Assembly (NCBI GenBank): GCA_045616165.1
Contig: JAZLGF010000023.1
Span: 906 to 64,905, forward strand
Origin: Lachnospiraceae bacterium
GTDB taxonomy: Bacteria > Bacillota > Clostridia > Lachnospirales > Lachnospiraceae
Reading direction: 5' to 3'
Length of the DNA: 64,000 bases
The translations under genes were made by a program, and so were the position numbers. Position 1 is the first letter of the stretch; each line of letters begins with the position of its first letter. This document shows, one piece after another, positions 15,810 through 46,922 of the stretch. The notes under the pieces were generated by a model that was given only the letters and a program-made list of their open reading frames with translations, was not told the DNA's origin and ran no database searches.

Positions 15810-16373
15810 TTATTTTATAGCCTTTTTATCTGTTTTTAAGGAAGTATAACTCCTTGAAACACAAACTTTATCCTGCCCGCTGTCGCTCCAATCTTTTTTT
15901 ACATTTTCAATGTCATATACATTAATATCTTTTCTATCTGTACTGATTTTTATTTCTTCATCAAACATCCAACCTTTGGAAAAAGAATAAACATTATAAT
16001 TAGTAAATATTATTAAAGCTTGATCTATTTTGATTTCATATTCTCCATCATTCACGTTGATGATGTCTGTTACAATTTGAACATCTTTAACTTTTTCATC
16101 TATCATATATTCTTTTGTTTCAATACCATATGGAAATTCGTCTGTTAATTTAACTTTCACACAAGAAAAATAAGCAACATCTTCTTTGGCTCCAAAAAAC
16201 TCAACCGGCTTTTGCTCATTTGAAAAATCAATTGCAAATGTCCCCATATTTATTCTTAAAAATTGCATAGGATTGTATCTATCTTCTAATGAATACTCAT
16301 ATGATTTGAAAGTTTTTCCTATCATTTCTTTTAATGTGTTTTTCATTTTTTTATCAAAACATGCGTTAATCAT
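15810..16373 (-). CDS. Hypothetical protein, 187 aa, D/E-rich, no TM segment (last gene of the unknown four-gene operon)
   Basis: ORF starts 2 nt after the stop of the 138-aa ORF. I recognise no family. Confidence 0.6.
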   Translation of the reverse strand: MINACFDKKMKNTLKEMIGKTFKSYEYSLEDRYNPMQFLRINMGTFAIDFSNEQKPVEFFGAKEDVAYFSCVKVKLTDEFPYGIETKEYMIDEKVKDVQIVTDIINVNDGEYEIKIDQALIIFTNYNVYSFSKGWMFDEEIKISTDRKDINVYDIENVKKDWSDSGQDKVCVSRSYTSLKTDKKAIK

Positions 16374-16375
16374 TT

Positions 16376-16792
16376 CTAATCCTCCACAAAAAAGTGAATT
16401 TTTTGAGTTTTTATACTCTTTTCACCTATTACATTAATATCTACTGCTGGGCTTCCTTTTGTGCTAGTAATTATTCTATGTGTGATCCATGTTCCATCAT
16501 CAAGACGAACTCTACTTCCTTTTCCATTTGCCAAAGGCCCTTTTTTACCACCCGTAGCTAATTTTTCAAAAAAATCTATCGAGTCACCTATTGGATCATT
16601 CGTTTTATAAACTCGTGCATTTTTCCCTGGTTGAGCAAAATACCCATTAGAAGTCAGTCCATATTTGTCCTTAACCAATAGCGCATTTTCCTCAATTGAA
16701 GATTTTTTCTTGGTATTTTTTGGGGCTATGCTTTCAGAAATATCCTCAGTACCTACCGTATTGGAATAATTACCTCCATATCCACTTCCCAT
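16376..16792 (-). CDS. Hypothetical small basic protein, 138 aa, with a G/S-rich N-terminus
   Basis: Its ATG overlaps the stop of the upstream DUF4417 gene by 1 nt (16792). The C-terminal part GKGSRVRLDDGTWITHRIITSTKGSPAVDINV...KIHFF is reminiscent of stand-alone toxin-type modules, but I cannot name a family. Confidence 0.55.
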   Translation of the reverse strand: MGSGYGGNYSNTVGTEDISESIAPKNTKKKSSIEENALLVKDKYGLTSNGYFAQPGKNARVYKTNDPIGDSIDFFEKLATGGKKGPLANGKGSRVRLDDGTWITHRIITSTKGSPAVDINVIGEKSIKTQKIHFFVED

Positions 16793-32992: not shown

Positions 32993-33167
32993 TTTTGTCT
33001 CTCCTGTGTTCCTATCTACTCGCAGGGGGCCTTCCTGCTCGCGCTTGAAATTTTTAACTTTATTGCACCTCGCTCCCGCAGGACATCTCCCATACTTCGC
33101 AGGTGCCTCCCCAATAGGGTCCCCCCTGCTCGCATGGTACCCTCCTGCTCGCGCTCGGAACTCCTAT
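32993..33167. repeat. GC-rich repeat-bearing intergenic spacer between the arsR-like gene and the ATPase gene
   Basis: Hand count gives 88 G+C in 150 nt (33011-33160). A 13-nt perfect direct repeat TCCTGCTCGCGCT occurs at 33033-33045 and 33143-33155. A third CCTGCTCGC lies at 33125-33133. CGCAGG-type units occur at about 33021, 33078 and 33098. Confidence 0.8.
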
Positions 33168-33500
33168 TTAGTCTTCTTCTGTTAAATGCAAAAGCCCGCT
33201 CTCCATTATCATCTCAACGTGCTTATCGTCCAAAAAATAAATTACTTCTTTGCCAACCTTACTGCATTTAACAAGTTTGGCATTTTTCAAAATTCTAAGT
33301 TGATGGCTAACAGCAGAAATCGTCATGTCACATGCTGATGCAATATCACCTACATTCATATTGCTAAGTGATAGACAACTTAATATCTTGGTTCTTGTAG
33401 AATCTCCAAAAACCTTAAACACTTCAGCTAAATCATAAATTGTCTCATCTGTTGGAAGCATTTTCTTTACCTGCTGCCCAATCGATTGATTTTTCTTCAT
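33168..33500 (-). CDS. ArsR/SmtB family metalloregulatory transcriptional repressor
   Basis: Winged-HTH segment FGDSTRTKILSCLS...MNVGDIASACDMTISAVSHQLRILKNAKLV. Start chosen at MKKNQ (33500), which has an AGGTGG SD. The longer ORF start at 33539 would lie inside the operator. Confidence 0.85.
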   Translation of the reverse strand: MKKNQSIGQQVKKMLPTDETIYDLAEVFKVFGDSTRTKILSCLSLSNMNVGDIASACDMTISAVSHQLRILKNAKLVKCSKVGKEVIYFLDDKHVEMIMESGLLHLTEED

Positions 33501-33523
33501 AATCCACCTTTTTTTCTCTACAC

Positions 33524-33576
33524 TTGAACGACTATTCAACTGTTCAAATATTATACTAATGTCGCCTTTTTGTCAA
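33524..33576 (-). promoter_or_regulatory. Predicted arsR promoter (TTGACA ... TATAAT/TAATAT) with a downstream TTGAAC-N12-GTTCAA operator-like inverted repeat
   Basis: On the minus strand TTGACA lies at 33576-33571. TATAAT lies at 33555-33550 (15-nt spacer), or TAATAT gives a 17-nt spacer. An inverted repeat TTGAAC/GTTCAA lies at 33524-33529 and 33542-33547, resembling ArsR/SmtB operators. Confidence 0.55.
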
Positions 33577-33583
33577 CAACTCA

Positions 33584-34115
33584 CCAGGCTCGGGTTCCAA
33601 CTCGCCGATAACGAGCAATGCGGCTCTGCTCGCAATCCTTACACACAAAAATATTTTTTTATGTGGAATGAGTGTAATGGAACGCGAAGCTGCCGTCGCC
33701 AGCGCTAGTGAGGGCGCGCGACGGCCTTCGCTTTTATGAAATCACCTAAAACCATAAACATCTTGTATTTTAAGATAGCTGTTTATGGTTTTTATAGGAT
33801 TAAAACACTATATTTTATTGACTTAGGAAGTTTTCGCCCATAAACACTTAGCTTATAACATACCGAGTTTATGGTTAAGACCATAACTGCCAATAATAAA
33901 TCATGAAATGTTTATGGTTTTAACTGATTTCAAAGAGTAAGGCGGGTGGCTAGCCGAGTTTTGATGTCGAATGATTTACCCGCCGTAAGTAGCGAAGCAA
34001 GGCGCGCGCCCTCAACAGCGCAGGCGCCGTCAGCTTCGCGAGCGAAATAGTATATTATTAAGAAAGCGAGCGGAGCAGTGAGGCTCGTTATCGGCGAGTT
34101 GGAACCCGAGCCAGG
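33584..34115. repeat. Composite GC-rich palindrome: ~130-150-bp imperfect inverted arms flanking an AT-rich core
   Basis: A 30-nt perfect inverted repeat GGCTCGGGTTCCAACTCGCCGATAACGAGC lies at 33587-33616 with its reverse complement at 34083-34112. A second inverted block spans 33683-33732 and 33991-34040 (about 80 percent complementary by hand alignment). Sampled arm segments are 58-72 percent G+C and the centre is about 28 percent. Confidence 0.9.
33748..33920. repeat. Six copies of the 8-mer GTTTATGG (three convergent pairs forming three hairpins)
   Basis: CCATAAAC occurs at 33752-33759 and 33838-33845, with a degenerate CCATAAC at 33881-33887. GTTTATGG occurs at 33781-33788, 33867-33874 and 33910-33917. 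The first pair extends to a perfect 13-bp stem (33748-33760 / 33780-33792). Confidence 0.9.
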
Positions 34116-34184
34116 AACGAGCTACACTGTCCGCGAGCATATAGTAAAGAGCCCTACAAAGGGCAAGTTTTTATAATGGATAAC

Positions 34185-34216
34185 ATAAAAAATGGGGAGA
34201 CTTATTTTGTCTCCCC
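34185..34216 (-). terminator. Rho-independent terminator after the lipoprotein gene
   Basis: Stem GGGGAGAC/GTCTCCCC (34194-34201 / 34209-34216), followed on the minus strand by TTTTTT. Confidence 0.8.
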
Positions 34217-34237
34217 GTTTAAGATTAGTTTATATAC

Positions 34238-35149
34238 TTACTTAGTTACCGTGAATTCCTCAGTTTTAGCTTGTGAGTATTCATTTCCAGTATTACGCAT
34301 AATTATTGTTACATATATCGTAGATAAATCCACATCATTTGACTCAATTATTTCGCCTAAATTATTATTATGTATCATCCCTTTGCAACTATAAGTCATT
34401 TTGTCTACTGACCCAGGAAGCAACAGTTGTCCTCTGTCCATATCTAATCCTGGAACATCAACCTTTAGTATATAGTCTATCATATTTCCTGAAGCATCAA
34501 TATAATCTGCAGCTTTACCATTCGCATCATATAAATGAATAGACTTATTAACTTCTATTAGATCTTTTGATTTACTTCTAGTGTCAAAAGTAAGTAAGAC
34601 TCCATTTTCAGTTTCTACCCTTTCAACATAAACCGTACAATAGTCATTGTCTAAAAAACATTGTCCTTTTGGCTCTGACGGTTTTTCAACATCAATTTCT
34701 TCTCCATGTGTTAAAAATGAACATTGTATATATTGAGTTTTCAAATATATTGTTTTTACTAACAAATCTACTTTTGAAATATCTTTAATCTCATATTGTG
34801 CTATTTGTTCTGGAGAAATATAGATTTTATCCTTAATAGTTTCTCCACCTGCTATATCATATTCAGATTCATTTATGCTTGCATGATAACAATTATTTAA
34901 GCATGCATCTTTCGTATTTATATAATAATGGTGACCATCAGATATATTTTCTATAGTAAGATTAATAGTAAATCCACCTTTTTCATCAAAGCCCATCTTT
35001 GTTGAAGTGAATTTAAGTTCTCCATCATCATATCCGACTATATCTTCAGTTTGTTTCTTTTCTTCTTTTGATTTCTTTGAGTCACTACATCCAATAAGTG
35101 AAATCGCAAGCAAGGTAACCATTAATATTGCAAAAAATTTCTTTTTCAT
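34238..35149 (-). CDS. Hypothetical lipoprotein
   Basis: 303-aa ORF with signal peptide and lipobox (AISLIGCSD). No family recognised. Confidence 0.6.
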   Translation of the reverse strand: MKKKFFAILMVTLLAISLIGCSDSKKSKEEKKQTEDIVGYDDGELKFTSTKMGFDEKGGFTINLTIENISDGHHYYINTKDACLNNCYHASINESEYDIAGGETIKDKIYISPEQIAQYEIKDISKVDLLVKTIYLKTQYIQCSFLTHGEEIDVEKPSEPKGQCFLDNDYCTVYVERVETENGVLLTFDTRSKSKDLIEVNKSIHLYDANGKAADYIDASGNMIDYILKVDVPGLDMDRGQLLLPGSVDKMTYSCKGMIHNNNLGEIIESNDVDLSTIYVTIIMRNTGNEYSQAKTEEFTVTK

Positions 35150-46838: not shown

Positions 46839-46922
46839 TGCGGAGGATGGGACTTGAACCCACACGCTGTAGCCAGCACAAGATCCTTAGTCTTGCTCGT
46901 CTGCCAGTTCCGACACCTCCGC
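46839..46922 (-). tRNA. tRNA-Leu, anticodon AAG (class II, long variable arm)
   Basis: Hand-folded cloverleaf. Acceptor stem is GCGGAGG/CCUCCGC with discriminator A. The D arm has a 3-bp stem. Anticodon stem is CAAGA/UCUUG with loop C-U-A-A-G-G-A. Variable-arm hairpin is GCUG-GCUA-CAGC. T arm is GUGGG-UUCAAGU-CCCAU. No encoded CCA. Confidence 0.85.

Follow-up and report, generated by a model that had tools for sequence, protein, structure and literature searches.

Repetitive extragenic palindromes (REPs) carry a GTAG tag and, with the related BIMEs and REPINs, are often mobilised by RAYT tyrosine transposases (PMC2817692, PMC3733652, PMC3337134). BIMEs are made of REPs in alternating orientation (PMC2817692), and the tag defines REP families, whose members are 20–40 nt long with stems of 5–13 bp (PMC3733652). 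When GTAG repeats were surveyed in 2013, Firmicutes were not among the listed phyla (PMC3733652). BOX, RUP and SPRITE are clade-restricted, structured and largely parasitic repeats with slow transposition, able to affect co-transcribed genes (PMC3049150). Here we describe an element at positions 33584–34149 of a 64,000-nt stretch of DNA (the window) from a Lachnospiraceae bacterium (GCA_045616165.1, contig JAZLGF010000023.1, positions 906–64,905 of the forward strand). Unless stated otherwise, positions are those of the window. On balance, we favour the view that this element is a low-copy, lineage-specific mosaic of small hairpin repeats, REP/BIME- or BOX-like, situated at a synteny break.

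The element lies in the largest non-coding gap of the window, 737 nt from the arsR ATG (33500) to the stop codon of a lipoprotein gene (34238), within densely packed DNA whose genes are mostly on the minus strand. A previous inspection of these letters without database searches (the sequence-only reading) had singled out this gap as the largest and had described in it a GC-rich composite palindrome with two nested inverted blocks. A repeat search confirms both blocks. The outer pair (33584–33633 / 34066–34115) is 50 nt long and 86% complementary, and the inner pair (33683–33732 / 33991–34040), also 50 nt, is 82% complementary, close to the 80% estimated by hand, with 258 nt between its arms. 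A third pair, absent from the sequence-only reading, spans 56 nt at 73% complementarity (33737–33792 / 33877–33932). The perfect 30-nt core of the outer block is exact as well: GGCTCGGGTTCCAACTCGCCGATAACGAGC at 33587–33616 is the reverse complement of 34083–34112 and occurs once per strand, and none of 100 shuffles contained it. Folding of 33570–34175 gives −259.1 kcal/mol (z −17.5) for the plus strand and −259.8 kcal/mol (z −18.6) for the minus strand. The element is not due to chance. An assembly artefact was also considered and ruled out, because the arms are only 82–86% complementary. With respect to base composition, the arms are indeed GC-rich (64–74% G+C) and the centre AT-rich, in a window of 34% G+C, but the 258-nt centre has 32.6% G+C rather than the 28% or so reported before. 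The linkers, at 20–27%, form AT-rich internal loops of unequal length, as had been described.

We resolved the element into modules, for which we coined the names X, Y, H and Z, and a unit T. Relatives carrying the same modules were reached via the proteins of neighbouring genes. They are two metagenome-assembled genomes (MAGs) and a third source: MAG A (JAZLLU01; loci L001, L003 and L009), with a lipoprotein 93% identical to that of the window; MAG B (JAZRXA01; L010), with a CadA 87% identical; and species C (ERZ27247122; L011, L012 and L016), with a CadA 85% identical. More distant relatives bear the source name Parasporobacterium sp. No identical proteins are on record for the ArsR, lipoprotein or CadA of the window. 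The order of the element is X (inverted, truncated), linker, Y (inverted), three AT-rich hairpins, H, Y, linker and X (full), as follows.

33576–33548, minus strand: arsR promoter TTGACA-17-TAATAT, in the flank outside the element, kept in L010 and L011
33584–33633, minus strand: truncated X, the outer left arm, comprising the 5′ stem half and the invariant core and ending ..CCCGAGCC
33634–33682, no strand: left linker, AT-rich (26.5% G+C), with a small local hairpin
33683–33732, minus strand: inverted Y, the inner left arm, with its own GC-rich hairpin (−31 to −33 kcal/mol)
33744–33927, no strand: array of three AT-rich hairpins with the common stem AAAACCATAAAC/GTTTATGGTTTT
33938–33988, plus strand: module H, hairpin GGCGGGT/ACCCGCC
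33989–34042, plus strand: right Y, the inner right arm, a GC-rich hairpin of ~50 nt after GTAG, GTAGCGAAG...CTTCGCGAG
34043–34065, no strand: right linker, AT-rich
34066–34142, plus strand: full X, a 77-nt hairpin with a covarying stem of ~20 bp and the invariant apical region TCGTTATCGGCGAGTTGGAACCCGAGCCAGGAACGA
34143–34149, no strand: terminal bases, the right end of the element, before homology to the L009 flank resumes
34151–34216, no strand: right flank, with a small bidirectional hairpin and the lipoprotein terminator, both common to L009

The left X, whose end stands directly against the arsR promoter region, is recovered by nhmmer with an E value of 1.3e-10 and by the covariance model at 33567–33633 with 30.7 bits; the corresponding values for the full X are 6.5e-23 and 102.9 bits. 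Unit T is the 3′ half of X (34113–34142, CCAGGAACGAG..GTCCGCGAGCA) and has no partner on the left side. The two linkers differ in length and, by eye, are unrelated in sequence. X and Y each form an inverted pair and a ~10-nt word of the central array alternates in orientation six times, all within the one intergenic gap, which is the organisation that characterises BIMEs. GTAG stands directly 5′ of the Y stem in three of four copies (window 33989 onward, L009 and L010), although its last G may be paired; in the left Y copy the tag is degenerate (AAAG). X and the AT-rich hairpins lack GTAG. We also observed that in the Y copies of MAG A and MAG B (L009 12840–12885; L010 175–222) the tag region UAAGUAG is exactly complementary to the loop CUACUUA, making a pseudoknot possible. 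This complementarity is missing in both window copies.

Comparison with relatives, a check proposed in the sequence-only reading, allowed us to fix the ends. L009 5886–11002 aligns with window 39269–34149, from a biotin-ligase-like gene beside pyc, through pyc, the lipoprotein gene and its terminator, and this homology ends at 34149. On the other side, L010 aligns across the arsR coding region and through the promoter to window 33583. The element is therefore 33584–34149, or 566 bp, and its left end falls beside the arsR −35 box, where the earlier inspection had placed it. As for the remainder of the extent proposed then, the palindrome is real but its ends are asymmetric, the right side having a 34-nt tail (34116–34149) with no partner on the left. 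The small hairpin GCCCT/AGGGC at 34151–34164 (plus strand) exists, is followed by AAGTTTTT and is bidirectional. Because the flank that holds it is conserved in L009, a relative without the element, it lies outside the element, which weakens the suggestion that an element transcript ends on it. The lipoprotein gene has a strong terminator at 34216–34194 (minus strand), and the element is placed between two terminators on one side and the arsR promoter on the other. No plus-strand promoter is predicted inside the element. The gap between the lipoprotein terminators and the arsR −35 box is transcriptionally quiet.

The few available copies of each module were compared using RNAalifold. Double compensatory changes were found at 6 of 21 pairs in X, 3 of 18 in Y and 4 of 10 in H (the last from the window, L009 and L010). 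Substitutions specific to the left Y (C-G at one pair, U-A at another) are compensated within its own local hairpin. Between the arms, the situation differs. Of 31 mismatches in the three long-range pairs, 19 are unpairable on either strand, while 8 are G·U on the plus strand and 4 are G·U on the minus strand. Among these few copies, covariation of the kind raised before as a test of the palindrome is seen, as compensatory change, in the local hairpins X, Y and H and not in the long-range arms. Folding of X, Y, H and the AT-rich hairpins one by one shows no consistent strand preference. We conclude that the conserved unit is the individual hairpin, which a single strand of DNA or RNA can form. 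The giant 0.5-kb stem, or palindrome, is a by-product of the mirror order of modules and not a selected helix, because the long-range mismatches are mostly unpairable and the arm-specific changes are compensated locally.

These data bear on the proposal that the gap encodes a single large RNA, structured, non-coding and ~0.5 kb long, comparable in size to OLE, ROOL and GOLLD, in which a long bipartite stem closes a multi-hairpin domain. The very low folding energy (z about −18), the GC-rich segments in a 34% G+C genome and the terminator-like hairpin downstream on the plus strand are all in line with such an RNA, and the element resembles the large ornate RNAs (OLE, ROOL, GOLLD, HEARO/omega RNA, raiA) in size, in G+C relative to the genome and in its strongly negative folding energy. 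It differs from them in that no covariance model matches it, both strands fold equally well, and neither conservation of the whole unit nor covariation of the long-range stem is seen. With Rfam 15 at gathering thresholds, the tRNA at 46839–46922 is the sole feature of the whole window to pass; with E values up to 10 allowed, 33400–34350 gives six chance-level matches of 12–23 bits, compared to thresholds of 40–100. The Rfam check suggested earlier thus returns no family for the region, and Rfam likewise has nothing for the modules of L009, L001 and L010. The predicted fold is essentially a single long rod without multi-domain architecture, no promoter is predicted, and no relative conserves the element as a whole; the modules alone recur, reshuffled. 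The equal stability of the two strands, taken together with the pattern of mismatches and compensation, argues against a selected 0.5-kb RNA helix and favours independent hairpin modules. We consider the large-RNA proposal largely refuted and extremely improbable.

Copies of X were then compared across loci. A profile search with nhmmer places X at four sites in ~230 kb of clade DNA, and a covariance model of X run over 194 kb yields no further convincing copies. In MAG A, X is found at L001 388–466, between the divergent promoters of the signal recognition particle (SRP) RNA and dnaX and outside both transcripts, and at L003 1409–1490, in the 3′ untranslated region (UTR) of gdhA, between stop codon and terminator. 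At the same gdhA site, species C has two tandem diverged X units (L016 11512–11642) with a different apical sequence. Other candidates for this site were uninformative, P0123 not being on record and the contig of P0126 stopping just past ackA. The X core of the window is identical to that of L001 at 38 of 38 nt and to that of L003 at 36 of 36, whereas the coding DNA of the same genomes is merely 72–87% identical and the modules outside the X core are 82–92% identical. Selection on X, or recent exchange, explains this conservation better than neutral decay does.

The surroundings of the L001 copy are of some interest in themselves. A 290-nt nested-palindrome X element (L001 238–525) fills the space between the two promoters and contains three inverted and two direct copies of the ~25-nt unit T (AGGAACGAG..GCGArC). 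The RNA gene on one side of it, at L001 64–163 (minus strand), is a bacterial small SRP RNA (76.8 bits), divergent from dnaX.

One interpretation of the X data is that X is a small functional RNA or RNA element, an ~80-nt hairpin with an invariant apex that would act as a 3′-UTR-derived or stand-alone small RNA or be bound by a protein. The right copy (34066–34142, plus strand) would then be the functional part, with what remains of the palindrome being a decoy or debris. The complete identity of the 36–38-nt core across species at three unrelated loci speaks for such a function, and the covarying stem, the diverged X between the gdhA stop codon and terminator in both MAG A and species C, and an intrinsic-terminator-like hairpin 10–25 nt after X in the window and L003 are consistent with it. 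On the other hand, no plus-strand promoter is predicted upstream of the window copy, and the terminator-like hairpin there belongs to a flank that is conserved without X in L009. Nor do the other loci fit well: X in L001 is outside both transcripts, and the species C copies differ in the apical sequence. The X stem has five G·U cells on the X strand versus one on the opposite strand, but this bias concerns just six cells and reverses once the outer stems of L001 and L003 are included. Finally, on any window transcript that contained both, the core would be masked by pairing with its 50-nt complementary copy. We judge the identity of X as a small functional RNA or RNA element to be rather unlikely.

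Another possibility is that the element is a classical MITE (miniature inverted-repeat transposable element), or foldback transposon, mobilised by a DDE transposase, with X/Y arms as long terminal inverted repeats and inserted upstream of arsR. Its size of 566 bp, intergenic position and long inverted arms fit this idea, as do its absence from the syntenic site in MAG A and the inverted copies of unit T that border X in both L001, where they are 92% complementary, and L003. But a transposon of this class should have equivalent ends. Here the ends, AGGCTCGGG... and ...ATAGTAAA, are non-complementary, giving no MITE-type terminal inverted repeats at the extremes, and the tail is on the right only. 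The flanks (..AACTCACC / element / GAGCCCTA..) show no direct repeat at 33583/33584 versus 34149/34150, and no target-site duplication is evident around the X units of L001 and L003. This agrees with the sequence-only reading, which had seen neither a target-site duplication nor a nearby transposase; we too find no transposase among the window open reading frames (ORFs) tested. Multiple near-identical copies with target-site duplications, a sign of MITEs, were not found in the relatives or the collections searched, and the two arms of the element are themselves merely 82–86% alike. Moreover, the arms are built of modules that occur singly elsewhere, and conservation is higher in the internal X core than in the presumed terminal repeats, the reverse of the MITE pattern. 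Of the two earlier suggestions, that of a non-autonomous repeat or mobile element nevertheless agrees better with the evidence, given the recurrence of the modules at unrelated loci and in both orientations; with unmatched ends and an apparently low copy number, a classical MITE is decidedly unlikely.

The mosaic interpretation that we favour draws further on the variability of the locus. No two of the four genomes compared have the same pyc–arsR interval, as follows.

Window 34149–33584: lipoprotein gene, then the element
MAG A, L009 10913–13370: lipoprotein gene, Z, tandem lipoprotein paralogue, Z-array-H-Y-array, then hicAB and other genes
MAG B, L010 1–560: array-Y-H-Z directly upstream of arsR
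Species C, L011 9113–9552: no lipoprotein gene; AT-rich palindrome of 40 nt/80%

Given these differences in content, the locus is a rearrangement hot spot decorated with repeats. At one end of the species C palindrome, unit T has left a weak remnant (L011 9211–9236, nhmmer E 4.9); a second, at the other end, was recognised by eye only. H precedes Y in all three genomes that carry Y (window, L009 and L010), and the H-Y block lies at L009 12798–12905 and L010 158–268 in opposite orientations relative to the flanking genes, with the Y copies themselves at L009 12849–12904 and, on the opposite strand, L010 159–215. Adjacency of Y and X, by contrast, was found in the window only, where it occurs twice in mirror image. 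Module Z, which the window lacks, is carried by MAG A and MAG B.

Z is a long hairpin found at L009 10990–11100 and 12345–12552 and, on the opposite strand, at L010 282–412. Its arms hold DnaA-box-like words, TTATCCAC(A/C), and a conserved CTACTATGTCCCATTGCGTCGC segment comes next. All seven non-Watson-Crick stem positions (7/7) are G·U on one strand and A·C on the other, with −70.6 versus −51.4 kcal/mol in an example fold. This strand bias is a hint of an RNA from the strand not used for naming. A separate observation at this locus concerns promoters. The sequence TTGTTGACAAAAA(A)GTC is common to two −35 regions, one in the lipoprotein-paralogue promoter of MAG A (L009 11186–11202) and one in the arsR promoter of L010 (485–501), and both sites adjoin a repeat module. 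Module edges may carry or create promoter elements, or the similarity may reflect chance.

The central array of the window element consists of hairpins at about 33746–33794, 33838–33876 and 33877–33925, with loops of 21–22 nt that are mutually unrelated. Equivalently, it can be described as six copies of the ~10-nt word AACCATAAAC in alternating orientation. The 10-mer GTTTATGGTT has four exact copies in the 64 kb, all in the array, compared to 0.27 expected, and inverted word pairs are spaced 28–31 bp apart, or about three helical turns. Hairpins with a related stem, AACCATACAAC, are found at L010 1–145, on the other side of Y. The arrays of MAG A use other stems, namely TTACTCTTCCA (four copies) and TTTTGGCGT (three copies). 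The first of these, L009 12568–12792, is a tandem set of four TTACTCTTCCA/TGGAAGAGTAA hairpins with unrelated loops of 15–18 nt, and it constitutes a ~250-nt insertion relative to the 11-nt linker at the orthologous Z-H junction in L010. The second, L009 12915–13135, has three TTTTGGCGT/ACGCCAAAA hairpins with related 34-nt loops. In the L009 arrays, then, stem sequence is conserved and the loops of the first array are not.

Such regularity could mean that the array is a target for proteins at the DNA level, as in an operator, partition or iteron-like site, with the six AACCATAAAC copies and/or the X core bound and arsR possibly influenced. The confinement of the word to this place, the helical spacing of its inverted pairs and the position of the left X core against the arsR −35 box are compatible with this hypothesis. 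So is the finding that units with unrelated loops, in the window and in L010 alike, agree in the sequence of their stems and not just in the pairing. Arguing the other way, the MAG A arrays have entirely different words, so several cognate proteins would be needed; the X loci (gdhA, dnaX, arsR) are functionally unlinked; and no partner gene is evident. We think a binding array very unlikely. A partial parallel to the array is provided by the NIMEs of Neisseria meningitidis, in which variable repeat units are each flanked by 20-bp dRS3 inverted repeats. There too, a short conserved word alternates around variable sequence, in intergenic DNA at rearrangement-prone loci. NIMEs differ in sequence and phylum, and dRS3 is a known target of a phage or IS110-type recombinase, whereas no such partner is known here.

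Copy number was assessed by searching larger collections. Among 185,579 GTDB species-representative genomes, an exact 22-mer of the X core occurs at two loci in one related MAG (JAZLLU01, SGB_3839); an additional match, in a high-GC coding region of Anaerolineales, was judged to be chance. Exact scanning with the X core gave no match in IMG/VR viral contigs and, in JGI metagenomes, five chance matches only, all in DNA of 52–73% G+C. The Y tag pattern was not found in the viral contigs. A blastn search at a sensitivity of about 65–70% gave no match in 72,556 plasmid and 50,697 phage records. No second copy of the whole element was seen in the window, the relatives or the collections searched, and in the literature on the element sequence and on Lachnospiraceae repeats nothing relevant was found.

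Several other ideas were examined and set aside. Two loops searched as CRISPR-like matches to phage DNA had no exact viral match. A stem-loop-stem pattern gave two matches in viral contigs, both single terminator-like hairpins at the chance rate. An origin of the X core from a tRNA or rRNA fragment is unsupported by Rfam or inspection. Finally, the word GCGAGC was considered as a Chi site; 7 of its 15 occurrences in the window lie within 32993–34149, and we rejected the idea because the word is clustered rather than spread through the window. Repeats rich in the same word were observed in a distant relative with a CadA 70% identical: L014 8420–8730 (and L015 3222–3342) has tandem GC-rich CAGCTCGCTGACGCTCGCTGAC... 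repeats downstream of bioY, followed by an AT-rich palindrome of ~170 nt. Based on these loci, GCGAGC/GCTCGC-rich intergenic repeats seem more widespread in this Lachnospiraceae group.

How closely does the element resemble the described families? In its behaviour it is like REP/BIME, BOX or NIME elements, being non-coding, intergenic and modular, limited to a narrow clade, and reshuffled from locus to locus and in orientation. With REPs and BIMEs it shares GC-rich extragenic hairpins whose stems are kept by complementary changes, with GTAG 5′ of the Y stem; alternating or inverted copies that form larger hairpins (head-to-head dimers), with several families per cluster; and a distribution that is species- or clade-specific and lies downstream of genes or between transcription units. 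With BOX (boxA-boxB(n)-boxC), RUP and SPRITE it shares a Firmicute host, a modular build with complementary outer modules and variable tandem inner units, extensive predicted secondary structure, a narrow clade and slow turnover. The likeness to BOX is architectural only, the BOX module sequences not having been compared directly. BOX differs in having more than 100 copies per genome and no sequence similarity; its inner unit is a simple 45-nt tandem repeat, while the inner units here are hairpins with a conserved stem and unrelated loops; and the module sets here vary between loci.

Several observations weigh against the mosaic interpretation. The modules are 50–77 nt long with composite stems, compared to 20–40 nt for typical REPs, and the X and AT-rich hairpins do not have the tag. 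Copy number looks low, apparently a handful (the 22-mer twice in one MAG, X at four places), whereas REPs number tens to thousands per genome. Neither the window's small ORFs nor the genes tabulated for the related loci examined include a RAYT or IS200-type transposase gene, and the host is a Firmicute. REPINs have far shorter spacers than the 258 nt that separate the inverted Y copies. Finally, an X core of 36–38 nt is identical across species whose coding DNA has diverged, and the gdhA 3′ UTR holds a diverged X at one and the same position in MAG A and in species C; conservation of this kind fits a selected function (an RNA, a protein-binding site) better than junk DNA. Nevertheless, a role for X as a small RNA or in protein recognition strikes us as possible but doubtful.

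If the element is indeed such a mosaic, its mirror order would probably go back to a Y-linker-X block that was duplicated in inverted orientation, or to head-to-head dimers formed as in REP clusters, because Y-X adjacency is confined to the window and occurs there twice in mirror image. The lack of evident similarity between the two linkers, judged by eye, counts against the duplication step. Modules may have spread through a hairpin-specific, single-strand IS200/RAYT-type tyrosine transposase, or through recombination or template switching between hairpins. The GTAG tag on Y and the structure-conserving mode of evolution suggest recognition of single-stranded hairpins. For the host, the element would at most separate the lipoprotein transcription unit from the arsR promoter, as a barrier, and give rise to local rearrangements.

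Related GC-rich units also occur inside the neighbouring operon. The transcribed intercistronic spacer between arsR and cadA (32993–33167, minus strand; 52–57% G+C) is composed of GCGCGAGCAGGArGG..GCGAG units, of which the window has two along with an extension. A single unit is present in MAG B (L010 894–954), and a unit plus extension in species C (L011 9886–10000). The spacer folds with a z of −3.65 and contains a weak match to the X covariance model (33014–33042, E 0.22). It may be an intercistronic element of REP-like type that influences cadA expression or the stability of arsR mRNA. Elsewhere in the window, at 15810–16792 (minus strand), two adjacent ORFs of 187 and 138 aa near the gene for ribosomal protein L19 have no Pfam match.

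REP/BIME-like elements are hardly catalogued in gut- or rumen-type Lachnospiraceae, and the present element, if correctly read as a hairpin mosaic, would represent an undescribed family of structured intergenic repeats in these bacteria. The main use of this reading is in annotation, where it keeps GC-rich palindromes of this sort from being called novel giant RNAs. The repeats also mark a rearrangement-prone locus, one whose gene content differs in every genome compared. Local effects on expression or mRNA stability are conceivable, because the element abuts the promoter of the arsR-cadA-feoB metal operon and related GC-rich units lie in the arsR-cadA spacer. The invariance of X across species, unexplained by neutral repeat decay, could matter more. 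There is, in our view, a low though not negligible probability that a Parasporobacterium-like clade of Lachnospiraceae has in X a new functional recognition element, either a small-RNA or RNA-protein motif or the hairpin substrate of an unseen, REP/RAYT-like single-strand transposition system in Firmicutes. If X is a transposition substrate, such a system would have produced the window palindrome as well as the adjacent hairpin arrays, with their conserved stems and unrelated loops.

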